Assembly: GCA_965205265.1 (NCBI GenBank)
Contig: CBDBGH010000003.1
Span: forward strand, 5,184,001 to 5,248,000
Direction: 5' to 3'
Source of the DNA: Alphaproteobacteria bacterium
Lineage (GTDB): Bacteria; Pseudomonadota; Alphaproteobacteria; Bin95
DNA length: 64,000 nt
The translations under genes and the position numbers were made by a program. Numbering within the stretch: the first letter of the stretch is position 1; each line of letters opens with the position of its first letter. Under the pieces are notes generated by a model. The model saw nothing but the letters and a program-made list of their open reading frames with translations. It made no database searches and was not told where the DNA came from. Of the stretch, positions 22,514 to 59,544 are shown piece after piece.

Positions 22514-22528
22514 GCTGGAGGAGATCTG

Positions 22529-28797: not shown

Positions 28798-28997
28798 AGG
28801 ATCGCTCGCGGGCATTTCATCCGCTGCGGTATGCAGCGGGCAAATCTGGAGGGGGCCCGGTTTCGCCAGCCCCTGTTCACCAAGGCCGATCTGAGCGAGG
28901 CCAATTGCAGGGAAGCCTATCTATGGGGCAGCGGCCTGACAAGCGCCTCTTTCAGGAATGCCGACCTTACGGAAGCGCTCGTCTCAAGGACAGATCT
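28798..28997 (+). repeat. 200-bp target-site duplication, right copy
   Basis: Matches 26682-26881. Confidence 0.9.
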
Positions 28998-39640: not shown

Positions 39641-40135
39641 ATGCCTCGTAGCGGAGAAGCGCAGTCCGTGTCATCGGTCGTCGAGGAAGCGCAGAGGATC
39701 GCGATGGCCTTTCCCTGTCGACTGGCCGTCGAAGCGGGACATCCGCGCTACAGGTGGGTCTGCAACGGCCTGGTGCTGCGCATGACCGTCAATACGGGCT
39801 ATGAGTGACTGGAGGAGGGTTTCGGCGGGTCCGTGTGGCATGCCTCGATCAGCTTCCGGCGCCGGAGGTCCCGCCGCCAGTACCGGGCGGCCCTGCTCGC
39901 GGCCCTCAAGGGCGTCGGAGACCCTTCAAGGGAGTGGAGCGACACCAGCCCGGACGGCACGGTGTTTCACCTGCGCCGCCGCCTTACGGAGCCTGAGGAA
40001 TTGCGGGCGGGTTCGCCCGCCGACATCCGAGGAACGGACGAGGCGGTGCGCCGGCAGGCGGAAATGGCCCGGGTGCTCGGTTGGCCGCTTCGGCGGGCGC
40101 AGGACCTTGACAGGCCGGACGGTATTTTCTCGTGA
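39641..40135 (+). pseudogene. Hypothetical gene with one in-frame TGA at 39806-39808
   Basis: ORFs ending 39808 and starting 39833 share a frame, with only this stop between them. Confidence 0.45.
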
Positions 40136-40181
40136 CCCGGTTATCCTGTCTGCGGGCGGCACAGGAAGGAGGCAGTCGATC

Positions 40182-40931
40182 ATGAAAATGTCGGTGGAGG
40201 AATTCGTGCGTGCCCGGGATAAGGGAAGGCGCGTGTTCGCCGGCGTCGAACTGCCTCCCGGCTCAAGCCTGGCAGGCGAATGCCTGGAGGATGTCATCCT
40301 GGTCGGGGCTGTCCTTCGCGGGGTCGATTTCAGCAGGGCGGATCTCGGCGGCGCCGACCTTACCGGGGCAAATGTGGAAGAGGCGGACTTCAGTGGCGCC
40401 CAGCTGGAGCATGCCGTTCTGCACGGCGTGAGGGCTGCGCAGGCGAGATTCTCGGGCGCCGGCATGCAGGGCGTGCTGATGCGCGGGGCCGATGCGTCCG
40501 GAGCGCGCATGGACAATGTCCGGTTCAGCTACGGGGACCTGTCGGCGATCGCCGACCTGTCCGGGAGCGTGCTGAACGGGGCGGACCTGTCCGACTCGCT
40601 GATGAACGAGGTTTCGTTTCGCGGCGCCAAACTCCAGGATGCGGACCTGACCGGTGCAAGGGCCATGCGGACCCTGTTTGTCGAGGCGGACCTCCGTCAG
40701 GCAAGGCTCGTGGGCGTGACGGGGCAGGCGGCTCTCTTCTTGAAGGCAGATCTGACGGGGGCCAGTCTGGCGCAGGCCCGGCTACCGGACGCGGACTTCG
40801 CGTCGGCGGTGATGAGATACACCAATGTGGATTCCGCCGATCTGCGGGATGCGAAATTCGATAATGCGGCGATGGACGATGCGGTGCGTGCAGCCATCGT
40901 GCAGACAGAACCGGCCGGGCCGGCCCCTTGA
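40182..40931 (+). CDS. Pentapeptide repeat protein
   Basis: AGGAGG RBS; RARDKGRRVF cap; tail EPAGPAP. Confidence 0.9.
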   Translation: MKMSVEEFVRARDKGRRVFAGVELPPGSSLAGECLEDVILVGAVLRGVDFSRADLGGADLTGANVEEADFSGAQLEHAVLHGVRAAQARFSGAGMQGVLMRGADASGARMDNVRFSYGDLSAIADLSGSVLNGADLSDSLMNEVSFRGAKLQDADLTGARAMRTLFVEADLRQARLVGVTGQAALFLKADLTGASLAQARLPDADFASAVMRYTNVDSADLRDAKFDNAAMDDAVRAAIVQTEPAGPAP

Positions 40932-40966: not shown

Positions 40967-41286
40967 TGGAAAGCAGGTTTGACGACAGGCCGGCATCCAG
41001 GCGGCCATCGGCAAGCGCCCCTCCTGTTCTCGAGATCGGCTGGGACAACGGGGCCGTGATCTATCCGGTCGGGGTCGAAACCGGAATCTCCGAAATCTAT
41101 GTCCAGAAGCGGTTCCATTCCGAGGCGGTGGACGCCATTCGGGCGTTGCTGCGGGTCATGGGAAGGCCGGAAGAGGGCGGAGAGGCCGCGCTGGCGCGAC
41201 GCAAGGCCGAAACGGTGCTGTTTCGCGAGGAGGCGTACCGTCTCGGTTCGAGGCCGGACGGGCTGCCGGTGAATTGGAGGTGCTGA
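40967..41286 (+). CDS. Hypothetical protein (start approximate)
   Basis: 3' part of ORF 40825..41286, coupled to the next gene. Confidence 0.45.
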
Positions 41287-42053
41287 TGGGCGCGCCCGAC
41301 CACCGCCTCGGAATGGAACCGCTTCTGGACATAAGTGAGGCGCGCTTGCTCTATCGCAGTTCGCTGGCTCGGCAGGCGGGCTGCGTCAACCGTCGGCGTC
41401 GTCGGAAGTTCCGTGCGATGGAACGCGCCGTCGACGAGCATGACGGGATGACGCTCGATGCCGCCGACGAGGAGGTTTGGGTCTGGTCGGACCTGCACCT
41501 GGGACATGCGAACATCATCGAATATGCAGCGCGACCGTTCGCCGGTGTCGATGAGATGAACGCGTCTCTGTGGCGGCAGTGGGAACGGATTGGAGGACGG
41601 GCGTCGACGATGGTGGTTGTCGGTGACCTGGCGATGGGCAGCGCCGTGTCCGACAACACATGGGCGCGCGTGCAGGGGACGGGGCCTGGAAAGAAAATCC
41701 TGGTGCTCGGGAATCACGACCTTACCGGTTCGGGCAAGGTGCGCGTCGAGGGATTCGATGAAATGGGGTCGCTCATGCTCTGCGCCGGTGACCCACCGCT
41801 TGTCTGGACCCATTTCCCGCTCGACGACGTGCCGGAGGGGTGGGTGAACGTGCATGGACACGAGCACGATGCGCCGCCGCGCGACTCGCGGCACATCAAT
41901 GTATGCGTCGAGCATCTCGACTTCGCGCCGGTGTCCCTCGGGAGGATCAGGGCGCTCGCAAGAGCGCTTGTTCGCGGCTCGGCGCCAACTTGCGGAAGGA
42001 CGATCGAGCGGATCGAAACGATCGAGGCGCGCTCGGCGGCCGGCGGCAACTGA
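41286..42053 (+). CDS. Calcineurin-like metallophosphoesterase
   Basis: SDLHLGH, VGD, GNHD, THFP and VHGHEH motifs. Confidence 0.85.
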   Translation: MGAPDHRLGMEPLLDISEARLLYRSSLARQAGCVNRRRRRKFRAMERAVDEHDGMTLDAADEEVWVWSDLHLGHANIIEYAARPFAGVDEMNASLWRQWERIGGRASTMVVVGDLAMGSAVSDNTWARVQGTGPGKKILVLGNHDLTGSGKVRVEGFDEMGSLMLCAGDPPLVWTHFPLDDVPEGWVNVHGHEHDAPPRDSRHINVCVEHLDFAPVSLGRIRALARALVRGSAPTCGRTIERIETIEARSAAGGN

Positions 42054-42055
42054 CG

Positions 42056-42871
42056 ATGGCAGGCGGCGGCATGCCTGTTCCGTCGCTCTGCGCGGTATTG
42101 CCTGCCAATGCCGGGGGCCGGGATTTCGTAGTCGGCGACATCCATGGCCATTTCCCGACCCTCCGACGGGCGCTCGCCGAGTTGGAGGTCGGCGCCGCCG
42201 ACCGTCTGCTGTCCGTCGGCGACCTTGTCGACCGCGGGCCGTCATCGGAGGAGGCGCTGGACTGGATGACGGGTGACGGGATGGACTGGCGGTTCGATCT
42301 CGTGCTCAGGGGCAATCATGAACAGATGATGCTGGAGGCCCTCGCGGAATGCCCGCTTCCCGGCGTCCGGGACAGTGTCCGGGACTTGTGGTACGGGAAT
42401 GGCGGGCAGTGGTGGGAAACGGCCGGCCAGGAGGCCCGGGCGGCGTTCTGGATGGCGGCTCTCTCGGACCTGCCGTTCGCTGCCCGTGTGGAGACGGCGC
42501 ACGGTCCGGTCGGCCTGGTGCATGCCTGTCCCGTCCACCGGGCCTGGAGGGAATTGGAGCGCGTCCTGGACGACGACAGCCATGCGGGCGATGTCGCCCG
42601 GACGAGGGCGATCTGGAGCCGCGCCTATTTCGGCAGGGTCGAGCCGCTGATCGGCGAGGACGGCAGCGAGTGGCAGGGCCCGGTCGAGGGGGTCAGGGCG
42701 GTTCTGGTCGGACACACAAGGGTCCGCGAGCCGGTCTGGGCAGGGAACGTGCTGCATATCGAGACGGGCGTCTATTCCGGCGGGCCGTTGACCCTGGCGC
42801 GGATAGACGGGCCGGAGATCGAGACCTGGAGTTTCCACCGGGAGGGAGCGGAACCTGTGGAGAGCGCATGA
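42056..42871 (+). CDS. Metallophosphoesterase, PrpA/PrpB-like; paralog of 17719..18540
   Basis: GDIHG, GDLVDRG, RGNHE and GHT motifs; long blocks shared with the 17719 protein. Confidence 0.9.
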   Translation: MAGGGMPVPSLCAVLPANAGGRDFVVGDIHGHFPTLRRALAELEVGAADRLLSVGDLVDRGPSSEEALDWMTGDGMDWRFDLVLRGNHEQMMLEALAECPLPGVRDSVRDLWYGNGGQWWETAGQEARAAFWMAALSDLPFAARVETAHGPVGLVHACPVHRAWRELERVLDDDSHAGDVARTRAIWSRAYFGRVEPLIGEDGSEWQGPVEGVRAVLVGHTRVREPVWAGNVLHIETGVYSGGPLTLARIDGPEIETWSFHREGAEPVESA

Positions 42872-43467: not shown

Positions 43468-43865
43468 CTATCCAGAGCCTCTGTGTTCCGGCCACACATT
43501 GAAGGCTGTGACCCTGGCGACCGCGTTGAGCATCCCGGCGGCTATCCAGAGCCTCTGTGTTCCGGCCACACATTGAAGGTGAGGGCTGACCGGTGAAGGC
43601 GTCGGCATTCCTCGGCCTATCCGGAGCCTCTGCGCTCCGGCCGCATTGAAGGTTTTCCCTGTCGCCCGGCTAAGTCCTCGAGCGCGCGGTCTATCCGGAG
43701 CCTCTGTGCTCCGGCCACATTGAAGGTGAACGCGGGACAGGAATGCGATAACGAGAAGGCCGGGTTATTCGGAGCCTCTGCGCTCCGGCCACACATTGAA
43801 GCAGTCGAAAAGCGGAGGATGCGGTATGGCAAGCGAATTCTGTCCGGAGCACAGGTTTCGGAAGG
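43468..43865 (+). CRISPR. Orphan CRISPR array: 5 repeats, a degenerate 6th, and 5 spacers; type I-G(I-U)-like repeat
   Basis: Repeats start at 43468, 43542, 43617, 43691, 43765 and (degenerate) 43840; consensus CTATCCGGAGCCTCTGYGCTCCGGCCAC(AC)ATTGAAG with CCGGAGC/GCTCCGG hairpin; unique 37-39-nt spacers. Confidence 0.88.
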
Positions 43866-43934
43866 GTTGGTCAGTGGCACGATCCTCCGCTATTCTATGA
43901 GCGGCACCTGCACGAACTGTCAGGAGGGACCCAG

Positions 43935-45081
43935 ATGAATGCGGAAGCGTTGGCCTTGGCGGCCGAGATTCGCGACTGCCTCGTGGTAATCGGGGACTCT
44001 CTTTAGCCGGGCGGCGTCTGCGGACCGGCTGGCGGTCCTGGATGCTCAAGCCGAAAATCCCGAACTCTGGAACGACCCGGCGCATGCCCGGGCGGTGATG
44101 CGCGAGCGACGGCATCTGGCCGGAAGGCTGGATGACCGGCGGCGCATGGAACAGGCGCTCCAGGACGCGCTCACGCTATGCGCTCTGGGCGAAGAGGAGG
44201 GAGATCCGGCGATCGTGGCCGAAGCCGCGGCCGGACTCCGGGCGCTGTGCCGGCAGGCCCGTCAGCGACGGCTCGAAACGCTGTTGTCCGGCGAAGCTGA
44301 CGGCAATGACTGCTACCTGGAAGTCACTGCCGGGGCCGGAGGCACGGAAGCCCAGGCCTGGGCGTGCATGCTGCTGCGCATGTATCTGCGCTGGGCTGGG
44401 GCCAAGGGCCATGAGATCGAGTGGCTGGAAGAGAGCCCCGGCAGTGAGGGAGGCCTCAAGTCGGCTTCGGTACTTGTCAGCGGCGTAAACGCCTATGGCT
44501 GGCTGAAGACCGAGAGCGGCGTTCATCGCCTTTCGCGGATATCGCCGTTCGACAGGCGGGCCCGGCGTCAGACGAGCTTTGCCTCGGCCTGGATATGGCC
44601 GGCCGTCGACGAGGAACGGGTCGGGATCGAGGTCGATGAAAGGGACCTCAGGATCGACCGCTACCGGGCGTCCGGGGCGGGCGGCCAGCACGTCAACAGG
44701 CGCGAGTCGGCGGTGCGGATCACGCACCTGCCTACCGGGACGGTCGTGCAGTGCCAGGACGAGCGCTCCCAGCACCGCAACCGGTCGACGGCGATGTCCA
44801 TGCTGAAGGCGCGGCTCTATGAGCGCGAACTTCGGGAACGGGAGGCGCGGGCGGCAGCGGAGGCCGCCGCAAAACCCGAGATCGCATGGGGCCGCCAGAT
44901 CCGGTCATACGTGCTTCAGCCGCAGCAACTGGTGAAAGACCTGCGGACCGGCCTGGAGAGGAATGACGCCGGGTCCGTCCTCGACGGGGATATAGACCGG
45001 TTCCTCAGTGCGGCGCTGGCGGCGCGGAGTGCGTATGCGGTGCGGGCGAGGCAGCCGGCTTTCAGCTTGACGACGGCTTGA
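43935..45081 (+). CDS. prfB: Peptide chain release factor 2-like protein; +1 frameshift at CTT TAG C (44001-44007)
   Basis: GGAGG RBS; 23 codons, then CTT TAG; +1 frame continues with ENPELWNDP, GGTEAQ, SPF and GGQ motifs; last residues supplied by IS66. Confidence 0.9.
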
Positions 45082-46663
45082 AGTTCCAGGGAAGCAGTTC
45101 ATCGAGGCGGTCATTGGGATGACCGGCTGCGATGGCTTCGAGTGTGGCCTTGAGCCAGGCGTGTGGCTCGACCTCGTTCAACTTCGCCGTCTGGATGAGG
45201 GATGCTATGCGTCCCCAGGCGGCGGCGCCGTCGTCGTGACCGGCGAACAAGGCGTTTTTCCGTGTAAGGACCACGGGCCGCAGGCTGTTTTCGACGGCAT
45301 TGCTATCCATTTCGACGCGGCCGTCGTCGAGGAAGATCCGGAGGCCGTCCCAATGACGGGCGATATAGGCGAGCTTTTCGCCGAGCCGGGACTTGGGCGA
45401 GACGCGGACGCGCTGCTGCGTCAGCCATTCGCCGAAGGCCTCGACCAGGGGCGCGGAGCGCGTTTGCCGTTCGGCGAGGCGCAGCTCCGGCGGGCTGCCG
45501 CGTATATCGGCCTCGATGGCGTAGAGTTCGGCGATCCGGCGTAAGCCCTCGGCTGCGATTTCCGAGCCGCTGCTGTCGTGGATTTCGCGAAGCCGGCGCC
45601 GACAATGGGCCCAACAGTAGGCCAGCCGCAGCGGCGCGCCGCCCTTGCGGCTCGGTCCGGCCAGCCGGCTGTAGCCGGCATAGCCATCGACCTGCAGGAT
45701 GCCGTCGAAGCCATCAAGGAAGCGCTCCGCATGTTCGCCGCCGCGCCCGGGGGCGTAGAAGTAGACGACGCCCGGTGGATCGGGCCCGCCCCAGGAACGG
45801 TCGTCGCGGGCCAGCGCCCATAACCAGCCGGTCTTCGTCCTGCCGCGGCCCGGATCGAGCACCGGCGCCCGCGTCTCATCCATGAAGAGCTTGGACGACC
45901 GTTTCAGGTGCCGTGCCAGGCGGTCAACCACCGGCCTGAGGTGGAACGAGGCCTTGCCGACCCAGCCGGCCAGCGTCGAGCGGTCCAGATCGAGGCCTGA
46001 GCGGGCATAGATCTGCGTCTGACGGTGCAACGGACAATGATCGGCGTATTTCGAGACCAGCACATGCGCGATAGCGCCTTCGGTCGGCAGCGCCCCTTCG
46101 ATCAGCCGGGCCGGCGCCGGCGCCTGGGTCACGCCTTCCTCACACCGGCGGCAGGCGTATTTCGGGCGCACCGTGACGATCACCCGCAACTGCGCCGGCA
46201 CGATGTCCAGGCGCTCCGTGCGATCCTCGCCGATCTTCGCCATTTCCCCGCAGCCGCAGGGGCAGAGCGTGCTCTCCGGCTCGATCACCTGCTCGATCCG
46301 CTCCAGGTGGTCCGGCAAATGGCCGAGATTGCGCGCCGGGCGAGGACGCTTCGGCGATTGGGCCGGCGCCGGATCGGCCGGCGTGATCGCTTCCTCGATC
46401 TCTTCCGCCGCCGCAACAAGGTCCTCGAACGCCAGCTGGCGCTCGTCCGCCGTCAGCTTCTCCGACCTTTTCCCGTAGATAACGCGCTGCAGCTCGCGCA
46501 CCAGGTGTTCGAGACGGCGGATGCGCTCGGACTGCGCCTCATTGCGGTCCGTCAACACCTCGTTCTCGGTGCGAAGCGTCTCCAGCGCCATGATCGCCTG
46601 CACCGCCGCTTCCCGCTGTTCGGGTGTCAGCGTTTCAAGGTCGATCTCCGCAAGCGCAGCCAT
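45062..46663 (-). CDS. tnpC: IS66 transposase TnpC
   Basis: CPCGC zinc ribbon, MDET, QVDGY, CWAHCRR and DSNAVENSLR motifs. Confidence 0.92.
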   Translation of the reverse strand: MAALAEIDLETLTPEQREAAVQAIMALETLRTENEVLTDRNEAQSERIRRLEHLVRELQRVIYGKRSEKLTADERQLAFEDLVAAAEEIEEAITPADPAPAQSPKRPRPARNLGHLPDHLERIEQVIEPESTLCPCGCGEMAKIGEDRTERLDIVPAQLRVIVTVRPKYACRRCEEGVTQAPAPARLIEGALPTEGAIAHVLVSKYADHCPLHRQTQIYARSGLDLDRSTLAGWVGKASFHLRPVVDRLARHLKRSSKLFMDETRAPVLDPGRGRTKTGWLWALARDDRSWGGPDPPGVVYFYAPGRGGEHAERFLDGFDGILQVDGYAGYSRLAGPSRKGGAPLRLAYCWAHCRRRLREIHDSSGSEIAAEGLRRIAELYAIEADIRGSPPELRLAERQTRSAPLVEAFGEWLTQQRVRVSPKSRLGEKLAYIARHWDGLRIFLDDGRVEMDSNAVENSLRPVVLTRKNALFAGHDDGAAAWGRIASLIQTAKLNEVEPHAWLKATLEAIAAGHPNDRLDELLPWNFKPSSS

Positions 46664-46718
46664 GGCTCGCTTGGTAGCACAGTGTCGCGGAGCCGGACGC
46701 CCCGATCCACCGGCTGAG

Positions 46719-47072
46719 TCACTCCGCCTCAGCCGGGCGCCGCGCCGACAGCGCCCGCACGCGACGCCAGTCCAGGCCCGCGAACAAGGCCTCGAACTGC
46801 GCATGGCTCAGCGACATCACCCCGTCGCGGATCGCCGGCCATACAAAGCCCTGGTCCTCCAGACGCTTGTAGATCAGCACCAGCCCGGTCCCGTCCCAGA
46901 AGACCAGCTTCAGCCTGTCAGCTCGCCTCGATCGAAAGACGTATACCGTGCCGGTGAACGGGTCCCGCCGCAGCGCGCCCTTCACATGCGCGACAAGGCC
47001 GTCGTGCTGGCGGCGGAAGTCGACGGGCTTCGTTGCGACAACGATCCGCACCCGGTTCGACGGGAAGATCAT
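46719..47072 (-). CDS. tnpB: IS66 accessory protein TnpB
   Basis: PVDFRRQHDGL and KLVFWDGTGLVLIYKRLE motifs. Confidence 0.9.
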   Translation of the reverse strand: MIFPSNRVRIVVATKPVDFRRQHDGLVAHVKGALRRDPFTGTVYVFRSRRADRLKLVFWDGTGLVLIYKRLEDQGFVWPAIRDGVMSLSHAQFEALFAGLDWRRVRALSARRPAEAE

Positions 47073-47458
47073 GACAGCGCATTCAGCGCAGACACGATCT
47101 CCGCCAGCCGGCCCGCCGGCACCGCCGCATCCAGACGGACCGTAACCCGGTCCAGAACCACTTCCAGACACCCACCGTTCGCCTCGGCGCCGTGCCCTTC
47201 AGCCCGGACCACCAGCGGCGCAAACTCCACTGCCTCGTCCGCTGCAGGCAAAACCAGGCGACCCTCCCGCGCCTTGCGACGCCAGTCCGACAGATGGCTT
47301 GGGCGAAGATCGTAACGCCGTGCTACCGAGGCCACCCTCGCGCCAGGCTCAAGCGTCTCCGCTACAATCCGCGCCTTCAACTCTTCCGGCCAGCGACGGC
47401 GACCCTTCACTCCACCGATCACCTCGACCGGGCTGAGAAACTCCGCAGTGCGCTCCAT
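47069..47458 (-). CDS. tnpA: IS66 accessory protein TnpA (HTH)
   Basis: RRRWPEELKARIVAETLEPGARVASVARRY motif. Confidence 0.88.
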   Translation of the reverse strand: MERTAEFLSPVEVIGGVKGRRRWPEELKARIVAETLEPGARVASVARRYDLRPSHLSDWRRKAREGRLVLPAADEAVEFAPLVVRAEGHGAEANGGCLEVVLDRVTVRLDAAVPAGRLAEIVSALNALS

Positions 47459-47622: not shown

Positions 47623-47698
47623 TGGAAGGCCCGCCGGGACTTGAACCCGGAACCTGGCGGTTAAGAGCCGCCCGCTCTGCCGTTTGAGCTACAGGCCT
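47623..47698 (-). tRNA. tRNA-Lys (anticodon CTT), CCA encoded
   Basis: 76-nt cloverleaf: acceptor AGGCCTG/CGGGCCT, D arm GCTC/GAGC, anticodon arm GGCGG-CTCTTAA-CCGCC, T loop TTCAAGT. Confidence 0.92.
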
Positions 47699-48290: not shown

Positions 48291-49442
48291 ATGGATTCCA
48301 CGCCGATCACGTTGGAGGAAATCCGTGAACTGGTCGCGTCCCGGCAGAGCGGTCGGCGGCTCGACCTGAGGGGGCGTGACCTCTCAGGCCTGGACCTCTC
48401 GGGTTTTGCTCTCGGGGCCGTCGATCTGAAATTCTGCAATGCCGCCGGAACGAGGTTCGACGGTGCGGAGCTGACCGGCTCGGACTGGGAGGGAACGGAT
48501 CTGAAGGGGGCGAGCTTCAGAAATGCGGGCTTGAGCGGGGCCTTCTTCAGCATGAACGGGGAGCTTTCCGAGGTCGATTTCACTGGAGCCATGCTGCGCG
48601 AGGCTCACTTCTACGATTGCAGCATGGAGAATATCGATTTCACGAACGCCGACCTTTCAGGTGCGGACTTCCATTCGGTAACGGCGCAGAGCGTGATCTT
48701 CGACGGCGCGGATCTCCGGAACATCGAGCGGACCGACGCCAGTGTCCCGTTCCCTGCCATGAACTGGCGGAAGGCGGAAACCCGGGCGGCCGCCAACCTT
48801 CTGGCCCTGGTCGAGGACTATGGCAGGGAGGCGGAGAAGGCGCACCCGGCCCAGGTTGAGATATCGCTCGAGCAACTCAATGGTGCCTTGGCCGAGGTCA
48901 TGGAGCGCGCCCGGGAGCGGAGCAGGGAGGCGCAGCAGGCTCGTGCGGCGCTCCATGTCCGTGTCTTGAACGGCGAGCGCCGGTTTGCAGGAGAACGATT
49001 CGAGTTCATGACCCTGACGGACCTCGACCTGTCGGGTTGTGACTTCTCGGGCTGCTCCTTCCGGGGGAGCCGACTGTCGGGGTCCGACCTGTCCGGGGCC
49101 ATCCTGAAAGATACCTTCCTGCTGGACGCCGTCTTCAACGGGGCCAAGTGCAGGAAGACCGACTTCACGTCCGCGTCGGCGACCATGGCGAGCTTCCTGG
49201 GCGCGGACATGAGGGAGGCGGTGCTGCGGCAGGCCTCCCTCGACAATGCCGACTTCCGGGGCGCCTGGCTCGAGGACACGGATTTCTCCGGGGCGGAAGG
49301 CAGGAACATCGATTTCCGGGAGGCGCACATGGGGGCAGACGAATGGGAGGGGGCGGAGATTGCCGGCCCGATCCTGCGCAGCCCGCGGACGGGTCCGGAG
49401 GCCGCTCCTGAAGACGCGGTGGCGGCTGGCCCCGCGCCATGA
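48291..49442 (+). CDS. Pentapeptide repeat protein (two modules, helical linker)
   Basis: AGGAG RBS; repeats; second cap RVLNGERRF; tail AAGPAP. Confidence 0.9.
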   Translation: MDSTPITLEEIRELVASRQSGRRLDLRGRDLSGLDLSGFALGAVDLKFCNAAGTRFDGAELTGSDWEGTDLKGASFRNAGLSGAFFSMNGELSEVDFTGAMLREAHFYDCSMENIDFTNADLSGADFHSVTAQSVIFDGADLRNIERTDASVPFPAMNWRKAETRAAANLLALVEDYGREAEKAHPAQVEISLEQLNGALAEVMERARERSREAQQARAALHVRVLNGERRFAGERFEFMTLTDLDLSGCDFSGCSFRGSRLSGSDLSGAILKDTFLLDAVFNGAKCRKTDFTSASATMASFLGADMREAVLRQASLDNADFRGAWLEDTDFSGAEGRNIDFREAHMGADEWEGAEIAGPILRSPRTGPEAAPEDAVAAGPAP

Positions 49443-51092: not shown

Positions 51093-52140
51093 GGTCGAGG
51101 GTGACAAGCCGCACGGGCAGACCGGATTCATCGAAAGCCGTCGCTTCGAATTTCGGGGTGTTCAGGAGCCAGCGGCTGCTTTCGGTTGCAGCCGCGAGCA
51201 GGTCCTCCGGATGGTCCGACAGGCTCGCCTGACCTTCCCGCATGATTCTGTCATGGTCCAGAGGTTCCAGAAGGTCGACCGTGTACCCATTCCTGTTGGC
51301 GGCCGAGTAATGCCGGCCCGTTTTCCTGAAGGACCTGTCAACGGACTGGAGCGCCCCGACCAGCCCCTTCCCGGCCATCTCTCCGGAAAGACGCAGGCGC
51401 CGACGCGCGTCGCACGCCAGCAGACCGGCTTCGATCCTCACCCCCGCCGCCGCTTCATAGGCGAACAATGAATGCGTTCCCAGAACGATCAGGGAGGTCC
51501 CGAGCCAGTTCAGGTCGTCCAATTTCCGCATGATCCGGGCCGCCAGCGCCGGCACACGTCCCAGGCCGCGGGCCCGGAGCACCCGCGCCCTGCCGTCGAT
51601 CTGCCGCCTGAGCGCGGTGAACCGCTCCAGAGCCCGGGTCTTCCCATCGAGGAATTGCTCCAGTATCTTTTCGGTTTCGGGAGAGCGGCGGCCATAGGAC
51701 TTCCTCGTAGAGAGCCCGTGGGGGCGGCGAATGAGGTATTCGGCGTCTCCCCGTCTTTCGAATTTCAGCGATCCGCCGTAGCTGTGGCGCGTGTCCCGGC
51801 GCGCCTCCCGGAACAGGTCGAACCGGTCCCGGGCGTCCACGGAATCCCGGAGGCTGTCATAGTCCAACTGTATGATTTCCGTCATTTTTGCCAATTCTTC
51901 CTTGGATTCTTTTATCTTTTGGCAAAAACAGGAAAAATCAAGGTGTTGCGATAGAGTTTTTGAGCCTGGGCGAAGCCGCCGCGCGCGAGCCGCAATCGCA
52001 GGTGACAAGCCGAAAGCTCCGGGAGGCGCCAGGTTGAGGACACGGGATTCCCCCCAAAATATTCTCGGCTCTCATTTCAGGTCGAGGGGCTATCGTGAGA
52101 CTGGATGACAGCGCACGGTCCGGAGAAAGGGAGTCGGGCG

Positions 52141-53373
52141 ATGGAGTTGAAGCCGATATCGCAGCAGGAGCTGGAGGACCGGCTCGGCAGCCAGCGCTGG
52201 CCAGCCGACGTGCCGGACGCCGACGGCAACAACCTGCTGCACCGGGCGGCGGGACTCGGCGATCTGCGGAGTCTGGAGCTGCTTCTGGAGCCGAAGGGGC
52301 AAGGCAATCCCTGGCTGGTCAACGCCAGGGGAGAGACGCCCATGGCGCTGGCCGCTGCGGGTGGGCACGCCGACGCGATCAGGCTTCTTCTGGAAGCGGG
52401 GGTGCCTTCGTATGGAGCGGACAAGGCCGGGCGGAGCCCGTTGCACAGGGCTGCGGAAGCCGGCGCCGCCCATGCCGTGTCGGTTCTTCTGGAGGCCGGG
52501 GCCGCGGTTGACCCCGCCGACAAGCGCGGCCGGACACCCCTTCTCCTGGCTGTGTCCGCGGGGCATGAGAAGGTCGCGCGCCGCCTGCATCGCGCCGGGG
52601 CCGATCCTTGCCGGGAAGGCGGCTGGCTCGGCATGACGCCGCTTCATGAAGCGGTCCGCCTCAACCTCTCAAGTCTGGCCGGCAGCTTCATCGTCCAAGG
52701 GGAGAGAGCGAGCCCGCGCGATGCCTGGGGCCGGACGCCGCTTCATCTCGCCGCCCAGCGCGGGAATCGCGAGGCGTGCGTCACGCTGATCGCGCTGGGA
52801 GCGGATGTCGATACGCAGGACAGGAACGGCAATACGCCCCTGCACAGCGCGTGCCGGGGGGAGTTGCACGGAAACACCGACGCCAAGGAGCGGGGGGACA
52901 TCGTGCATCTTCTTGTCGATGGCGGCGCAGCCGACCCGAATATAGCCAATCAGGACGGGCAGACGGCCCTGCATTGGGCCGCGGCCGAGATGTTTACGGA
53001 AAGCCTGAAGAACTTGCTGGATGCTGACGGGGATCCGAACCTGCTCGACCAGAACAGACATACGCCGTTCCGTTGGGTGGTGATGAGCGGATATCCGGAT
53101 CTGGTCTCGATGGTGCTCAGCGCCGGCGCCGATCCGGATATGCGGGATATCCGGGGAGAGACGTCCCTGCACTGGGCGGCCCGACAGGGGTTCGGCGATG
53201 TGGTGGGGGTGCTACTCAAGGCCCGGGCGGATCCGCACGTCCTGAACAGGGACGGGCAGAGTCCCTTCGATCTCGCGAGTGAATGTCGGGGGGCGGACGG
53301 AACGCTGGACCACTATAACCTGCTGAAGGAGGCACAGGCTCCGGCCGGCGGAGATCTCCCGGAACCGGCCTAG
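52141..53373 (+). CDS. Ankyrin repeat protein (about 10 repeats)
   Basis: Recurrent G.TPLH.AA motifs; tail DLPEPA. Confidence 0.9.
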   Translation: MELKPISQQELEDRLGSQRWPADVPDADGNNLLHRAAGLGDLRSLELLLEPKGQGNPWLVNARGETPMALAAAGGHADAIRLLLEAGVPSYGADKAGRSPLHRAAEAGAAHAVSVLLEAGAAVDPADKRGRTPLLLAVSAGHEKVARRLHRAGADPCREGGWLGMTPLHEAVRLNLSSLAGSFIVQGERASPRDAWGRTPLHLAAQRGNREACVTLIALGADVDTQDRNGNTPLHSACRGELHGNTDAKERGDIVHLLVDGGAADPNIANQDGQTALHWAAAEMFTESLKNLLDADGDPNLLDQNRHTPFRWVVMSGYPDLVSMVLSAGADPDMRDIRGETSLHWAARQGFGDVVGVLLKARADPHVLNRDGQSPFDLASECRGADGTLDHYNLLKEAQAPAGGDLPEPA

Positions 53374-53374
53374 A

Positions 53375-54355
53375 TCAGCAGGGGGTCGGGGCTTCAGGGC
53401 TGTCTGCGGAAGGCACATCGTCGAGCTTCGCCCCGCTCAGCTTGGCCATGTGAAGCTGATGGGCGAACCTGGTATTGGCGCCGCGCAGGTCCGCATCGAC
53501 GAAAAAGGCCTCCCCGCAGCTCGCATAGGCGAGACTGGCGTGAAGCAGGACGGCTCCGGAAAAGTCGGCGCCGGCGAGATTGGCCTTGTCGAGCGAGGCC
53601 CGTGTGAGGTCCGTCCGGGCCAGACAGGCGTCGGAGAAATCGACCTCGCCGAGAACGGCCCGGGCCATCGAGGCCCTCTCGAGATCCGCACTCACAAAAT
53701 TCGCGAACAGGAGAGTCGTCCGGCCGAGAGACGCCCCGCGCAAGCTGGCGTTCGTGAAGGAAGAGCCGTTGGCGACGGCGTCGCGCAGGCAGGCCTCATT
53801 GAGATTTGCACCCTCGAAATTACACCGCCACAGCTCGGCATCCTCCAGCGAAGCCCGACGGAGGAAGGCGTGTTTGAACGAGGTTTCCACACATATGGCC
53901 CCGTTCATCTGGGCTCCTGTGAAGTCGGCTCCTTCGCATTCGCAGTCCGTGAGGATCACGGAACTCATATACGCCCCGCGGAAACTCGCGCCCTTGAAGG
54001 AGGCGCCGGTGAGGTCGAGATGCTGCAGAAACTGCCCGGAGAAGTCCTGGCCGTCGAAATTGCGTTCGCCGGCGGCGTAGCGGGCGCCGAGTTCGGCTTG
54101 GGACGGCCCGCGCCGGGAGGCGAGGATGTCGCCTGGGCGACGTTCCACGAGCCGGTCGGGCGCCGGGACGTGGATGTTGTCTTCGTGTATCTCAAGGACG
54201 TAGGGATTCCCGGCGTCCCCGTCTTTCCAGCTATCGCGGTAGTCGCAGAGAGCGACGGCCTTCTCGAAGCCGCGGTCGACATCGTCCGCCTCAACCTCGA
54301 CCTCGGCGCTATAGGACCTCGTGTAGGCGAGTGCGAACGTCCAGGTTTTGGTCAT
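53375..54355 (-). CDS. Pentapeptide repeat protein with N-terminal extra domain (tandem copy 6)
   Basis: N-domain WTFAL..VEVEADD; RYAAGERNF cap. Confidence 0.88.
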   Translation of the reverse strand: MTKTWTFALAYTRSYSAEVEVEADDVDRGFEKAVALCDYRDSWKDGDAGNPYVLEIHEDNIHVPAPDRLVERRPGDILASRRGPSQAELGARYAAGERNFDGQDFSGQFLQHLDLTGASFKGASFRGAYMSSVILTDCECEGADFTGAQMNGAICVETSFKHAFLRRASLEDAELWRCNFEGANLNEACLRDAVANGSSFTNASLRGASLGRTTLLFANFVSADLERASMARAVLGEVDFSDACLARTDLTRASLDKANLAGADFSGAVLLHASLAYASCGEAFFVDADLRGANTRFAHQLHMAKLSGAKLDDVPSADSPEAPTPC

Positions 54356-54374
54356 GGCAGTGAACTCCTCTCCG

Positions 54375-55343
54375 TCATTCGGCAATCGCCGGTCGGGAAC
54401 CGGACAGGGTGTCCTGCTCCCGATCCATGAAGGTCCTGGCGGTGTTGGCGCCGACGAGCTCGGCGCCGGCCATGCTGCAGGCGGTGAACACGGTGCAGGG
54501 CATGTTGGTGCCGACAAACTGCGCCCGCTCGAGCCGGGCTCTGTAGAATCCCGTGTCGTCGAGCGAGGCCCGGGAGAAGTCCGCCCCGGCCGCCTGGGCA
54601 TATTCGAAGAGGCAGTCGGCCACCAGCGCCCCGGCAAAGGTCGCGCGCTCGAGGGGAGTTCCGATGAAGTGGGTCTTCCGGATGCTCGCCGACAGGAACG
54701 AGGCGTCGGTCAGGTCCGTCTGCCGGAATGCGGCCGACGAGACAATGGCGCCGCGGAAGCCGGCGTTCCGGGCCCTGGCGCTCCCGAATGTCGTGCGCCA
54801 GAGCCGTGCCCGGTCGAACGATGCGCTGTCCAGACAGGCCTCGTCGAAAACCGCCTCGTCGAGGATGGCCGTGTCTAGCCGGGCGCCGTTGAAGACGGCC
54901 TTGCGGCAGTTGGCGCCGGTCAGCCGGAGGCCGTGCAGTTTCGCGCCTTCGAAAACGGCTTCGACAAGATCGGCGCCGGAGAGGTCGGCACCCGACAGGT
55001 CCATATGCGCGAAGTTCTCGCCGCTGAAGTCGCGCTCGCCCGCATCGTAGCGGGCGGCGAGTTCGATGGCGTCGGCGGACCGGTTCACGGACGGCCAGTC
55101 GGGGATCGGGCGCGCCAGGGGAGCCACAGGGATGCCGGCCGGGATCGGCAGCACGCTACCGGCCTCGGTGAGTTCGTAGGCGTAGGCCCGGTCGGTGGCG
55201 ATCACATCCCAGAGTCCGTCCCGGTCGGCGCGGACAGCCGCATCGGCGAAGGCTTCCTCGACAGTATTGCCGGCGCCTGCCGCCAGGGCGGCGTGGGACT
55301 GCCTGCGGATCAGGCCGAATTCGATGGTTCTGGTCATGCGCAT
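54375..55343 (-). CDS. Pentapeptide repeat protein with N-terminal extra domain (copy 5)
   Basis: N-domain ..TVEEAF..A..LW; RYDAGERDF cap. Confidence 0.88.
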   Translation of the reverse strand: MRMTRTIEFGLIRRQSHAALAAGAGNTVEEAFADAAVRADRDGLWDVIATDRAYAYELTEAGSVLPIPAGIPVAPLARPIPDWPSVNRSADAIELAARYDAGERDFSGENFAHMDLSGADLSGADLVEAVFEGAKLHGLRLTGANCRKAVFNGARLDTAILDEAVFDEACLDSASFDRARLWRTTFGSARARNAGFRGAIVSSAAFRQTDLTDASFLSASIRKTHFIGTPLERATFAGALVADCLFEYAQAAGADFSRASLDDTGFYRARLERAQFVGTNMPCTVFTACSMAGAELVGANTARTFMDREQDTLSGSRPAIAE

Positions 55344-55352
55344 GCGCTCCGG

Positions 55353-56375
55353 TCAGGGTGTCGGCTCCGGCAACTGGTTCGCAGGGGCGCTCGGCTCGCC
55401 GCCCCGCCGCATCGCGGTTACCCAGTCGGCGAGCGCGTCATCCATGATGGCGTCCTCCAGGTTGGCACAGTGGATATCGGAGGAACGGGCGTTGACGCCG
55501 GTGAGGTCCGCCCGGACGAGCGTGGCGTCCGCGAACTTGGCGCCGGGCATGTTCGCCTCCCTGAAAAGCGTGTCCGAGCAGTCCGCGGTGAGCAGGGAGG
55601 CTTCGTCAAGAAGGGCATGCTCGAAATCGGAGCGGACGAGCCGGGCGCCGTTGAGATTGGCGTGGAAGAAGTTCGCCTTGCGGCAGGAGGCATGGGATAG
55701 ATCGGTGCGGACGAAGATCGCATGGGTGAATTCGCCGTCGAACAGGGTGGCATGCTTCAGCGAGGCGTCGGAGAAGTGGCACCGGGACGCGCGGGCGTCG
55801 GTAAAGGTGGCCCCGCGAAGGTCGGCCCGGTCCATGACGGCGTGCCAGAGACGTGCGCCGGAGAAGTTCGCATGTCGGGCGTAGGCATTTCCGAAGCCTG
55901 CTTCGTCGAGACAGGCGCCGTTGAAGGCGGCGCCGGCAAGATTCGCGCCGCTGAAGTCCGCGAGGGCAAGCCTGCAGCCTGAGAAGTCCGTTCCGTTCAG
56001 CTTCGCCTCGTAGAAATTGGCCCCGGAGAGATCCAGGCCGGACAGGTCCTGGCCGGAGAAGTCCTCTCCCGCGAAGTCGCGCTCGCCGGCGGCGTAGCGG
56101 GCGGCGAGGGCGCGCGCCGCGCGCCTGTCGCGCCGCTCGGGCGGTCCGGCATGCGGGTTTTCGCCGATGGAATCGGGCACCGCGAGCGATATCCTGCCGT
56201 CGTGGATGTCGGTGGCGTGTTCGCTCTCGACTTCCCCGACGCGCCAGGCGCTGTCGTTGTTGGCGCGCTCGACGGCGGCGTGGAAGGCATCCTCCACGGT
56301 TTCGCCGGCCCCTTGGGCCCGGGCGTGGTAGAGGCGCTTCTGGACCAGTTCGAAGTCGTAGCTTTTTTCTGGCAT
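55353..56375 (-). CDS. Pentapeptide repeat protein with N-terminal extra domain (copy 4)
   Basis: RYAAGERDF cap; tail LPEPTP. Confidence 0.88.
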   Translation of the reverse strand: MPEKSYDFELVQKRLYHARAQGAGETVEDAFHAAVERANNDSAWRVGEVESEHATDIHDGRISLAVPDSIGENPHAGPPERRDRRAARALAARYAAGERDFAGEDFSGQDLSGLDLSGANFYEAKLNGTDFSGCRLALADFSGANLAGAAFNGACLDEAGFGNAYARHANFSGARLWHAVMDRADLRGATFTDARASRCHFSDASLKHATLFDGEFTHAIFVRTDLSHASCRKANFFHANLNGARLVRSDFEHALLDEASLLTADCSDTLFREANMPGAKFADATLVRADLTGVNARSSDIHCANLEDAIMDDALADWVTAMRRGGEPSAPANQLPEPTP

Positions 56376-56394
56376 GGATCGGGATCCCGGGTGG

Positions 56395-57432
56395 TCAGGG
56401 GGCGGGTGCAGCGGCTTCAGGGGCGGCGGCACGGTCGGAAAGGTGCTGAAGCAGCCAGGGATTGTCGGTTTCGACATCCGAAAGCGTTGCTTCGGTGATG
56501 TCCGAACCGCTGGCGTTGACGCCGGTGAGGTCGCTGCCGGTGAAATCTGCGCCGGCGCATGACGCGGACACCAGACTTGCGCCCCTGAGGGCTGCGAAGG
56601 AGACATTGGAACCCCAGAGGGTTGTCTCGTCCAGCACGGCGGCGGTGAGGTCTGCGCCGGACAGGATGGCCTGCTCCAGGGAGGTATTGGTCAGGTTGGC
56701 CCGGCGGAGCGAGGCATGGTCGAGATCCGTGTGCCAACACAGGGCGCCGCCCATCTGGATGCGGTCCAGAACGGCCCGTTTCATGTTGGAACTGCTGAAA
56801 TCGCATTTGGCAGCCATCGCATCGCGCAGGGAGGCGTCCTGGAGGTCGCAAGTCCTGAGCCGGGCGGACCACATGGCGGCCCTGTCGAAGCGGCTGCGCG
56901 GGAGCAGGGCAGTGGAGAGATCCGCTTCCTTCAGGTCGGCATCCCGGAAATCGGCGCCCGGGGCGCGGGCGTTCCTGAAGGACGCATTTGCCAGCTTGCA
57001 GCCCGAGAAATTCGTTCCTTGCAGCCGGGCCCTCTCGAAGCTGGCGGCCGTGAGGTCGAGACCGGACAGGTCCTGGCCTGAGAAGTCCTCGCCCGCGAAG
57101 TCGCGCTCGCCGGCGGCGTAGCGGGCGGCAAGCGTGCGGGCCGCCTCGGACAGATCGTCTTCGGGCCGGCTGGCCGGCTGGATGAAGCCGGGTGTCGGAT
57201 GCTCCGCATATCGGTCCGGAACGGGAAGTCCGAACCCGAGCTTCGAATCGGTCTCGTCGTCCACGACCGCTTCGATGAAGGGGCGGTCGTCCTCGTCGGA
57301 GCCCCAGAGGTCCTCGGCATCGGCTTCCTCTGCGGCGGTATCGAAGGCCTCGTCGATGCTGTCGGCGATGACGGTGACGCGCGCGGTGCGTCGTGTGAGG
57401 AGGGTCAGGTCAAGGGTCCAGGGATCGGACAT
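56395..57432 (-). CDS. Pentapeptide repeat protein with N-terminal extra domain (copy 3)
   Basis: WTLDL..ARVTVIADSIDEAF; RYAAGERDF cap. Confidence 0.88.
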   Translation of the reverse strand: MSDPWTLDLTLLTRRTARVTVIADSIDEAFDTAAEEADAEDLWGSDEDDRPFIEAVVDDETDSKLGFGLPVPDRYAEHPTPGFIQPASRPEDDLSEAARTLAARYAAGERDFAGEDFSGQDLSGLDLTAASFERARLQGTNFSGCKLANASFRNARAPGADFRDADLKEADLSTALLPRSRFDRAAMWSARLRTCDLQDASLRDAMAAKCDFSSSNMKRAVLDRIQMGGALCWHTDLDHASLRRANLTNTSLEQAILSGADLTAAVLDETTLWGSNVSFAALRGASLVSASCAGADFTGSDLTGVNASGSDITEATLSDVETDNPWLLQHLSDRAAAPEAAAPAP

Positions 57433-57445
57433 GGGCCAGCTCCGG

Positions 57446-58501
57446 TCAGGGGGTCGAAGGGAGGGAGGTTTCGGGGGCCGGTGGATCCGGATTCGGGGCC
57501 ATTTCGGCGAGGCCGGGGGCCGAGGTTTCCACGCCGTCCAGAACGGCCCCTGTCATGTCCGTGCCGACGAGGTTGGCTCCGCGGAGATTGGTCCGGGTGA
57601 AATTGGCTCCTCTGCATGATGCATGGGGAAGGTTGGCGCCGTTGAGGTTCCCGTCGGTGAAGTCCCCGTGATGCAGCGACGCACGGTCGAGGAGGGCCCC
57701 GGTGAAGTCCGCGCGCGCCGCGGCAACGCGCGTCAGCCGGGCCTGGAAGAGATTGGTCCATGCCAGCCAGGCATCCTCGATATCGGCTTCCAGGAAGGAC
57801 GCCAGGGCCATCTGGGCCCCGCTCATCGAGGCCCGTTTCATGCCTGCGCCATCGAAATGGGCCTGGCTTGCGATGGCGTCGCGCAGGCATGACTCGGAAA
57901 GATCCGCATTGTTGAACCCGGCGTTCCAGAGCCGGGTCCGATCCAGATGGGCGCGCGGCAGGCGGGCGTCGATGAACTGCGCTTCCGAGAGGTCGGCGCA
58001 GGAAAGCAGGACACCGTCCATCGTGGCGTTGTTGAAGTTCGCGCCGCGGAGATCCGCGGCGGAAAGTCTGGCCCCGCTGAGGTCGGCGCCGTCGAACCGG
58101 GCGTGAGGCAGGCGGATGCGGAGCAGGTCCTGGCCGGAGAAATCCTCGCCCGAGAAGTCGCGCTCGCCGGCGGCGTAGCGCGCCTCGAGGCGCTCGCGGT
58201 CGGGGAAGCCGCCGAAGCGCTGGTGCGGGCGGTCGTCGGGCCCTACGAAGACCGGCGGGGGCGTTTCCAAGAGGATGTCCGGGACCGGAATGAGGGATTT
58301 GCGGTAAGCGTTGCGCGGCTCGCCGTCTCCTTCGCCGACATTCTGGACAAAGGTGCGTATTTCGGGGGACTCGCACAGGAGATTGGCTTCCTCCGCATCG
58401 TTGAAAGCGGTCAGGAAGGCCAATTCCATGGAATCGCCCTCGGCAGTGACACGGGCCATCGAGCGGCTGGTTGCAACGAGGTCGAAGGTCCATTTACCCA
58501 T
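57446..58501 (-). CDS. Pentapeptide repeat protein with N-terminal extra domain (copy 2)
   Basis: MGKWTFDL..ARVTAEGDS; RYAAGERDF cap. Confidence 0.88.
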   Translation of the reverse strand: MGKWTFDLVATSRSMARVTAEGDSMELAFLTAFNDAEEANLLCESPEIRTFVQNVGEGDGEPRNAYRKSLIPVPDILLETPPPVFVGPDDRPHQRFGGFPDRERLEARYAAGERDFSGEDFSGQDLLRIRLPHARFDGADLSGARLSAADLRGANFNNATMDGVLLSCADLSEAQFIDARLPRAHLDRTRLWNAGFNNADLSESCLRDAIASQAHFDGAGMKRASMSGAQMALASFLEADIEDAWLAWTNLFQARLTRVAAARADFTGALLDRASLHHGDFTDGNLNGANLPHASCRGANFTRTNLRGANLVGTDMTGAVLDGVETSAPGLAEMAPNPDPPAPETSLPSTP

Positions 58502-58518
58502 GCCGGCACCTTCCGGAG

Positions 58519-59544
58519 CTATGGAGACGCATCTTCAATGCCGGCTTCCCGAGCCAGCGCGGAGTCGGAGAACAGCGCGCCGCCCAGGGTGGCCGAGGAA
58601 ATATCGGACTCCATGAAATTGGCGCCGCGCATGTCGGCATCCGTGAAGTCGGTGTCCATGCAATGCGTTCTGGGCATGTTGGCGCCGCAGAACCTCGCGC
58701 CGGAGAAATCGCAGAAGCTCAGATTGACCTTGTCGAGCAGCGCCCCGGTAAAATCGGCCCGGCGCGCTATGGCGTCGCGCATATGGATGCAGAACATGTT
58801 GGCGCGAACGAACGTGGCGTCCGTGAGATCGGCAAAGGTCAGGAAGGCGTCCGTGAGGTGGGCTTCGTTCAGGCAGGCGCGCTGCAGATCCGCCCTGCTG
58901 AAGACGGCGCTGCTCGCGATGACGCCGCGCAGGGATGCGTCCGTGAGGATGGCGTCGGAAAACCGCGCTCGCCAGAGATTTGCATGGTCGAGATGGGCGC
59001 GGGGCAGGCGGGTCTCATCGAATTCGGCTTCCGCGAGATTGGCGTGCAAAAGAACGGCTCCGGGAAGCATGGCGCGCTTGAATTTCGTGTTCCGAAGATT
59101 GGCCCCGCGCAGATCGGCGTTTGCGAAGGTTGCTCCATCGAACCAGGCGTAAGGGACCTCGACGTCGGACAGGTCCTGGCCGGAGAAGTCCTCGCCGGAG
59201 AAATCGCGCTCTCCCCGGTCGTAGCGCTGCTGGAGCTTCCGGGCGTCCTCCGAAAGTTCACGATGCGGCGAAGCCCCCGGACCGAAATATCGGGCGGAAT
59301 GGTGTTCGTCGAGGGCGTCCGGAACGGGAATGACGGAGTATCCATGGAAGGGATTGCAGGGGTTGGCTTCGCCTTCGCATACATTGTCGACGGACTCGGC
59401 GCGGTCCTCGACCTCTTCCCAGAGGCCGCCCAGATTGGCCTGGTCGAGGGCGGCGTTGAAGGCGGCGGTCATCGACTCGCCGTCGGCCGTGACGCGGGCG
59501 ACGCAGTAGTCGGCCCGACGGAGGTCGAATGTCCACTTGCCCAT
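58519..59544 (-). CDS. Pentapeptide repeat protein with N-terminal extra domain (copy 1)
   Basis: MGKWTFDL..ARVTADGES; RYDRGERDF cap. Confidence 0.88.
   Translation of the reverse strand: MGKWTFDLRRADYCVARVTADGESMTAAFNAALDQANLGGLWEEVEDRAESVDNVCEGEANPCNPFHGYSVIPVPDALDEHHSARYFGPGASPHRELSEDARKLQQRYDRGERDFSGEDFSGQDLSDVEVPYAWFDGATFANADLRGANLRNTKFKRAMLPGAVLLHANLAEAEFDETRLPRAHLDHANLWRARFSDAILTDASLRGVIASSAVFSRADLQRACLNEAHLTDAFLTFADLTDATFVRANMFCIHMRDAIARRADFTGALLDKVNLSFCDFSGARFCGANMPRTHCMDTDFTDADMRGANFMESDISSATLGGALFSDSALAREAGIEDASP

Follow-up and report, generated by a model that had tools for sequence, protein, structure and literature searches.

What does a release factor read when the stop codon of its own frameshift sensor is TAG rather than TGA? 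This question is raised by a prfB-type gene in a 64,000-nucleotide (nt) stretch of an Alphaproteobacteria bacterium genome (assembly GCA_965205265.1, contig CBDBGH010000003.1, positions 5,184,001 to 5,248,000), which we call the window. The gene lacks three near-universal features of release factor 2 (RF2): a sensor stop of the kind that RF2 reads, Val202 and Asp143. Standard residue numbers refer to Escherichia coli RF2 and were obtained by aligning the window protein, P0002, to E. coli RF2 chains from the PDB. An earlier note, made from the letters of the DNA, had suggested an RF2-scaffold factor retuned to UAG. After comparison with relatives, we favour the reading that the gene encodes a maintained RF2-derived paralogue that would accept UAG and whose synthesis would follow UAG termination rather than housekeeping RF2. 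We give this reading only just short of an even chance.

The gene (43935-45081, plus strand) has the full anatomy of a prfB-type gene, including a ribosome-binding site (RBS), a short upstream open reading frame (ORF0), a shift site and an open +1 frame (Table 1). Aligned with three normal 5' ends, its ORF0 has the same length as that of normal alphaproteobacterial prfB. As the earlier note had described, a prfB-type +1 site lies at codon 23, the slippery CTT-T is kept and the stop is TAG (44004-44006); the weak-context C after the stop is kept as well. The three normal prfB genes, from Tistrella, Sinorhizobium and Methylobacterium, read CTG AGG AGG YAT CTT TGA CTG G, and the window cassette, ATC GGG GAC TCT CTT TAG CCG G, can be aligned with them codon for codon.

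In E. coli prfB, the spacing between the Shine-Dalgarno (SD) element and CTT matters for frameshifting. The SD-like GGGGAC of the window gene occupies the usual hexamer position, but its G-run stops 5 nt before CTT, and that of the usual AGGAGG or AGGGGG stops 3 nt before it. No RNA structure stands out 3' of the shift site (z = −0.72). A promoter search at the gene found no promoter-like site, and its single terminator-like match was within the chance level.

The sensor codon is rare. For 8160 genomes with the prfB motif, the available text of Prince et al. (bioRxiv 10.1101/2024.09.24.614795) gives 98.6% TGA, 1.4% TAA and 0 TAG, and it uses the absence of TAG as an argument that the motif always serves RF2 autoregulation. 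No TAG-type prfB site is described in the accessible parts of the literature searched, and a literature text search for the CTT-TAG hexamer matched primers only. With the window gene, TAG is seen for the first time in the frameshift site of a prfB. It is very improbable that this TAG is a sequencing or assembly error for a true TGA, as two adjacent base errors would be needed and the odd residues of the protein are independently present in a second protein, P0004. That TGA to TAG takes two adjacent substitutions, with a stop, CTT-T and C all retained, also counts against decay.

P0002 is an RF2 by profile. It scores 439.4 bits with the NCBIfam RF2 model TIGR00020 (cutoff 370), has the Pfam domains PCRF (169 bits) and RF-1 (138.7 bits), and retains domain 1. 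With the two RF1 models it reaches 246 bits (cutoff 400) and 241.7 bits (cutoff 423), and with the PrfH model TIGR03072 it reaches 111 against 166.65 bits, which places it outside both RF1 and PrfH. The SPF tripeptide and the catalytic GGQ motif are intact, in agreement with the first description of the gene.

Two residues of the codon-reading part depart from this canonical picture, namely Ser in HRLSR, where RF2 has HRLVR, and Ala in GGTEAQAW of helix alpha5, where RF2 has Asp. Both had been pointed out in the earlier note and both stand. In an alignment of RF2s from database searches, Ser at V202 occurs in 0/256 other RF2s and Ala at D143 in 0/253, the latter position being Asp in 249 of the 253. 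A third change highlighted there, RRQTS, is likewise present but is common and nothing special: among the 330 of 379 proteins in which the RR.TS motif was found (49 are without it), the middle residue is Q in 56, H in 273 and E in 1. Further changes shared with P0004 are nearly as rare as the Ser and the Ala (A174G in 2/256 and T257R in 1/256 other RF2s), and position 307, a Gln in P0002, is Tyr in 98.6% of 216 alphaproteobacterial-type RF2s. We also scanned a one-genome-per-species collection of 185,579 species, which holds neither the genome of the window nor that of P0004, with a degenerate decoding-motif pattern; a polar residue at the Val position was found at two loci, neither of them a full-length RF2. 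No natural RF2 with these Ser and Ala residues was met in the literature, in which no search aimed at these residues was made.

Where do these changes lie with respect to RF1? Ser177 of P0002 aligns with the third-base Gln of RF1 (HRVQR), and Ala118 with a Leu of RF1 (GGDEAALF), so the equivalences proposed earlier, a Val position matching the RF1 Gln and an alpha5 Asp position that is hydrophobic in RF1, are borne out by the alignment. A174G and the Tyr to Gln change at 307 give exactly the RF1 residues (HGGYK and NFPQGRV). The residue called Val190 in molecular dynamics (MD) work is presumably V203 of Thermus thermophilus RF2, the offset of 13 being our assumption from His215 in the usual numbering and the His202 in the available text of PMC5681627. 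According to the accessible part of PMC5776981, MD simulations name an unfavourable contact with the hydrophobic Val190 as part of the reason why RF2 rejects the O6 carbonyl at position 3. The Gln of RF1 (181 in T. thermophilus, 185 in E. coli) forms a hydrogen bond with the third base and has a critical role where that base is G, as given in the accessible parts of PMC6821328 and PMC3974865. A hydroxyl in place of Val, together with the loss of the nearby carboxylate, would be expected to ease G at position 3.

Laboratory evolution offers a second comparison. In the available text of PMC7530605, Salmonella RF2 evolved to read UAG through changes at E167, E170, E172, K177, D329, A293 and K294, the last two as A293E and K294N; E172K raised UAG release 30-40 fold, and no variant that read UAG was free of release at UGG. 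The residue at E172 is Ser in P0002 and, in P0004, an Asp that precedes a Lys. At E167, K177, A293 and the residue aligned with K294 (an Arg, invariant in the alignment), P0002 is as its normal relatives are, and all alphaproteobacterial relatives likewise have Pro at E170 and Gln at D329. By alignment, the clade changes at E172, at its neighbour A174 and two residues past the D329 equivalent fall on or beside sites whose mutation in the laboratory increases UAG reading.

To collect relatives, we searched 5.8 billion protein clusters twice, using first the whole protein and then its residues 105-205 as query; each search gave the best 120 of about 8000 scored matches. Among the matches listed, P0004 (76% identity; encoded on an ENA contig of 302,850 bp) was the one close relative beside the window's own protein. 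The earlier note had asked for homologs to be collected, and the collection of 379 proteins shows Ser and Ala together only in P0002, its database copy P0003 and this relative. RF2s collapse into few clusters in a representative search at 50% identity. Neither plasmids (259 records, best 61% identity) nor phages (148 records, best full-length match about 51%) gave a close relative. The representative search also listed a 353-amino-acid (aa) protein, P0248, that is RF1-like over its first two thirds (HRVQRVPATE) and RF2-like over the remaining third; it is a natural chimera or has arisen by misassembly.

A maximum-likelihood tree of 42 RF2s pairs P0002 with P0004 at full support (100 in the Shimodaira-Hasegawa-like approximate likelihood ratio test, SH-aLRT), and the stem of the pair measures 0.40 substitutions per site. 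Their sister group (support 99) consists of the normal RF2s P0005, P0006, P0007 and P0066, with a stem of 0.10 and tips of 0.02-0.10. These four carry HRLVR, EAQDW and RRHTS, and their +1 frame reads GGIFDW, the signature of CTT TGA C. The tree position and the long stem suggest that the pair is a fast-evolving paralogue branch within an alphaproteobacterial (Rhodospirillales-like) RF2 lineage, and the Ser and Ala changes evidently arose on the stem of this paralogue clade.

We then analyzed where substitutions fell. Across the 216 alphaproteobacterial-type RF2s, 143 columns show at least 95% conservation and 167 are variable. P0002 departs at 12 of the conserved columns (131 kept) and P0004 at 20, the normal proteins having a mean of 1.4, a median of 1 and a maximum of 23. 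Nine departures are common to the two: D143A, A174G, V202S, Y223W, V225A, T243R, T257R, G318A and Tyr307Gln. With substitutions polarised by the sister group, changes on the stem hit 9/143 conserved vs 37/167 variable columns (rate ratio 0.28), and the private changes of P0002 hit 2/143 vs 21/167 (ratio 0.11, Fisher p = 1.2e-4). This depletion at conserved columns implies that the window copy has been under clear purifying selection since the burst on the stem. By these measures the gene is an intact and selectively maintained prfB paralogue.

How might such a gene work? By the anatomy of the gene, translation starts at 43935, and a full-length product depends on tRNA-Leu slipping by +1, from CUU to UUU, at CUU-UAG-C. 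Because the sensor stop is UAG, the slip would compete with UAG termination and not with ordinary RF2; synthesis of the paralogue would then be uncoupled from housekeeping RF2 and set by UAG reading. TAG is an ordinary stop here, ending 10 of 43 putative window genes (TGA 33, TAA 0), which argues that UAG termination matters to the organism. On the clade stem, two otherwise invariant residues of the decoding pocket, Val and the helix-alpha5 Asp, changed together to Ser and Ala. The most likely consequence would be that the remodelled pocket accepts G at position 3 and so reads UAG, in an RF1-like or broadened manner, and the paralogue would then autoregulate through its own cognate codon. That an RF2-scaffold factor was switched or widened to UAG through the coupled Val to Ser and Asp to Ala changes, that its sensor moved from UGA to UAG to match, and that the pair of residues acts as a general 'amber key', we put forward tentatively, as possible rather than probable.

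The TAG by itself would also fit an ordinary RF2 paralogue that reads UGA and UAA. Here the TAG would free its synthesis from repression by RF2, making it an RF1-sensing factor or a constitutive low-level spare, and the Ser and Ala would be unrelated fine-tuning. UAG is the only stop that housekeeping RF2 leaves unread, so a paralogue escaping repression would end with TAG, and SPF, E167, K177, H/Q214 and T215 are unchanged. We nevertheless consider this unlikely: it gives no account of why the two most conserved changed residues are decoding positions, it leaves the independent recurrence of the Ser/Ala pair described below unexplained, and slow UAG termination would not be remedied by more RF2.

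Several points weigh against the proposal that the paralogue accepts UAG. We infer UAG specificity from two residues, and the role of the helix-alpha5 Asp (D143), which the earlier note linked to the reading of G at position 2, was not confirmed from the literature. E167 and K177 are retained in P0002, and since SPF is intact, UGG (Trp) should also come under threat from a factor able to take G at position 3. The clade has only two members among the matches listed from the 5.8 billion clusters, and TAG has been read in one gene, from which the co-occurrence of TAG with Ser and Ala is taken. The other member may be relaxing, and possibly decaying: private changes of P0004 hit 10/143 conserved vs 20/167 variable columns (ratio 0.58, p = 0.18), and the invariant Thr of GGTE is missing. 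The SD-like stimulator appears weakened and mis-spaced in the window gene; with a degenerate hexamer and a 5-nt spacing, frameshifting at CUU-UAG-C may be less efficient. At the other end, homology to the RF2 family ends at Arg341 (45027), where an IS66-family insertion sequence (IS) begins, so the last 17 RF2 codons and the stop lie at the end of the IS or within it. IS66 has evidently taken the place of the native 3' end, and the gene stands amid IS elements.

Much of this is also what a redundant duplicate drifting to a pseudogene would display, with TAG, the weak SD-like element, IS66 and the residue changes all as damage under relaxed selection. The degraded hexamer and spacing, the IS66 that abuts or replaces the C-terminal tail in IS-rich surroundings, the long stem with its many departures at conserved columns, the private changes of P0004 that are not depleted at these columns, and the small number of members known among the matches listed would all agree with it. 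Yet the window copy is unchanged at 131 of the 143 conserved columns, where its private changes are ninefold rarer; the start, RBS and exact length of ORF0 are kept and both frames are open; every catalytic motif and most of those for decoding are preserved; and the move from TGA to TAG, as said, left a stop, CTT-T and the C in place. The G+C content at third codon positions (GC3) of the gene is 0.80, like that of adjacent genes. We therefore regard decay as rather improbable. The earlier note had named changes unique to this copy as a sign of decay; Ser and Ala are not unique, since P0004 has them, and the window copy is constrained.

The two loci found in the 185,579-species scan supply an independent view of the Ser/Ala pair. 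They lie in metagenome-assembled genomes (MAGs) of Verrucomicrobia (L001, 4371-4871, minus strand; L002, 6614-7114, plus strand) and encode a 166-aa protein that has only the codon-reading superdomain of RF2, with no domain 1, no GGQ domain and no frameshift. In both, it is flanked on one side by a calcineurin-like phosphoesterase gene and on the other by one for a type III DNA methyltransferase. The family (P0380-P0386) comprises 7 clusters of 149-166 aa from Verrucomicrobia MAGs and metagenomes. At the Val position it has HRLSR in 6/7 and HRLAR in 1/7, and the residue before the helix-alpha5 Trp is Ala in 5/7, Thr in 1/7 and Asp in 1/7; SPF and RRHTS are retained. We predict that this mini-RF2 is a catalytically dead stop-codon binder.

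A tree of 154 shared columns, from which the two trait columns had been taken out, places the mini-RF2 family far from the window pair. A joint clade of the two, a group named only after inspection of the tree, was rejected by the approximately unbiased (AU) test (delta log-likelihood 32.4, p-AU 0.007). This rejection implies that Ser and Ala arose together twice, which argues for functional coupling of the two residues and says nothing on the codon read. PADLOC assigned no defence family to the RF2 paralogue, its upstream ORFs or the mini-RF2.

The mini-RF2 brings in a further explanation, in which the factor is specialized for something other than a stop codon, such as the rescue of stalled or damaged ribosomes, and Ser and Ala fit a partner or an altered A site, possibly together with a metallophosphoesterase. 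Rescue has precedents in PrfH with RtcB and in the recruitment of RF2 by ArfA. The Ser/Ala pair occurs in a mini-RF2 that has no GGQ, is unable to release peptides and lies beside a calcineurin-like phosphoesterase; two Metallophos-like ORFs lie upstream of the window gene (Table 1); and more clade-specific changes cluster around residues 294-307, near the D329 equivalent. A conserved RF2-phosphatase module is nevertheless not supported, since the phosphoesterases of the window and of L001 are dissimilar by BLASTP (E = 4.6). In addition, 1 kb with another ORF (122 aa) and a repeat array separates the window phosphoesterases from the RF2 gene, the PrfH score is below its cutoff, neither an RtcB nor an ArfA-like partner was found among the ORFs profiled, and the TAG sensor would be left unexplained. 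We judge this explanation quite unlikely.

Returning to a paralogue that accepts UAG, we compared it with known systems. Like canonical prfB, the window gene has the RF2 profile, PCRF and RF-1 domains, SPF, GGQ, a 23-codon ORF0, CUU-U and a C after the stop; it differs by its TAG sensor, Ser202, Ala143, the weak, mis-spaced SD-like element and an IS-rich island as its setting. RF1 (prfA) reads UAG, and the window residues move towards it, with a polar Ser for Gln, an uncharged Ala for Leu, A174G and Gln307, but the protein is under the RF1 cutoffs, has SPF and not PxT, Ser and not Gln, and falls inside RF2 in the tree. PrfH (RF-H) is an RtcB-linked release-factor paralogue. It resembles P0002 as a natural class-I factor with altered decoding residues and a presumed special substrate, whereas P0002 keeps domain 1 and SPF and no RtcB occurs among the neighbouring ORFs profiled. 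The mini-RF2 shares Ser and Ala with P0002 in the proportions given above and keeps SPF and RRHTS; it differs in its short length, its missing parts and its independent origin.

Two further cases come from the literature. The laboratory mutants of RF2 that read UAG (E167K, E170K, E172K, K177R and D329A/G in the available text of PMC7530605) likewise use an RF2 scaffold; both clade members carry a change at E172, and K177 and D329 have other clade changes next to them. The mutants carry charge changes away from the bases and read UGG, while in the window protein the altered residues are the decoding pocket's Val and Asp, neither of which is among the mutations listed there. The mtRF1a of scenedesmacean mitochondria, in the accessible part of PMC6821328, is a natural retuning inferred from changes of Gln181, Thr186 and Ser206 and from stop usage. 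It is an organellar RF1 scaffold moving towards RF2, whereas the window gene is a bacterial RF2 scaffold moving towards RF1 with its own sensor codon.

The specificity of RF1 and RF2 is the textbook case of codon reading by protein. If the proposal is right, the gene would be an evolutionary record of a change in stop-codon specificity, its sensor codon would be an internal read-out of what the factor reads, and V202S with D143A would become a two-residue hypothesis for E. coli RF2. It might also show how G at position 3 is accepted without UGG reading, which is relevant to how RF1 and RF2 came to divide the stop codons, to engineering of the genetic code and to conflicts over stop codons between recoded phages and hosts. 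The overall interpretation of the earlier note is thus partly supported; the anti-phage and RF1-backup roles that it offered are speculation.

Table 1. Features of the prfB-type gene and its immediate surroundings (window coordinates)
Feature	Coordinates	Strand	Remarks
Weakly Metallophos/PdeM-like ORF	41274-42053		Upstream of the RF2 gene
PrpA/lambda-phosphatase-like metallophosphoesterase	41840-42871	+	1 kb upstream of the RF2 paralogue
Ribosome-binding site AGGAGG	43922-43927	+	7 nt 5' of the ORF0 ATG (43935); read from sequence
ORF0 (MNAEALALAAEIRDCLVVIGDSL)	43935-44006	+	23 sense codons + TAG; translation
SD-like remnant GGGGAC	43992-43997	+	Same hexamer position as AGGAGG in relatives; degenerate
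+1 frameshift site CTT TAG C	44001-44007	+	CTT 44001-44003, TAG 44004-44006, C 44007
+1 frame ORF, P0002	44005-45081	+	Open; 358 aa; residues 24-381 of the paralogue; TGA stop 45079-45081
Ala118 in GGTEAQAW, helix alpha5	44356-44358 (GCC)	+	E. coli D143
Ser147-Glu148-Gly149	44443-44451	+	E. coli E172-V173-A174
Ser177 in HRLSR	44533-44535 (TCG)	+	E. coli V202; T. thermophilus V203
SPF tripeptide, S180-P181-F182	44542-44550	+	Intact; E. coli 205-207
Gln189 in RRQTS	44569-44571 (CAG)	+	E. coli H214
GGQ catalytic motif, G226-G227-Q228	44680-44688	+	Intact
Gln307	44923-44925	+	Aligns with E. coli S331, two residues after the D329 equivalent
IS66-family element	45027-47404	−	TnpC 45062-46804, TnpB 46719-47171; NCBIfam + Pfam; boundaries approximate
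tRNA-Lys(CTT)	47623-47698	−	Just beyond IS66

The setting of the gene is not a housekeeping one but an accessory region, rich in IS elements, of an alphaproteobacterial chromosome; the window has 65.7% G+C. The part that resembles other IS66 copies begins at 45027-45072 and extends to about 47392-47404, and no terminal inverted repeats of IS66 were found. The tRNA-Lys(CTT) past IS66 points to the border of an island. The window yielded no cas gene, RtcB, RF1 or suppressor tRNA; cas families were absent from the ORFs profiled, and RtcB from the 20 neighbouring ones.

The metallophosphoesterase upstream of the RF2 gene has a paralogue in the window (17551-18540, plus strand; 51% aa identity), whose neighbours encode an AAA_21 ATPase (16401-17678) and an AlkB-like 2-oxoglutarate- and Fe(II)-dependent (2OG-Fe(II)) oxygenase (18507-19022). 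A mini-array (43468-43802, plus strand) resembling clustered regularly interspaced short palindromic repeats (CRISPR) lies 133 nt upstream of the RF2 start and ends in ATTGAAGG. Its 5 repeats are 36-38 nt long, follow one another every 74-75 nt and have 66-100% identity to the reference copy. Repeats 3-5 fold to a 7-bp hairpin; repeats 1-2 are identical and their stem is weakened. Its best Rfam match, CRISPR-DR16, scores 21.1 bits, under the gathering score of 35 (E = 0.12), and the array region gave no match in the phage or plasmid collections.

The window also contains IS1634, IS630 and an AbiEii-like ORF. Its 18 pentapeptide-repeat ORFs (46-1221, 10033-16437, 20857-24673, 28831-29592, 39801-40931, 48291-49442 and 53375-59544) form, together with ankyrin-repeat proteins at 4414-5661 and 52105-53373, an unusual expansion of repeat proteins within 64 kb. 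Two 551-aa ORFs on the plus strand (19150-20805 and 27039-28694) have identical G+C at the codon positions, and the second matches the IS1634 transposase model. This pair flanks several of the pentapeptide-repeat genes in a composite-transposon-like layout.

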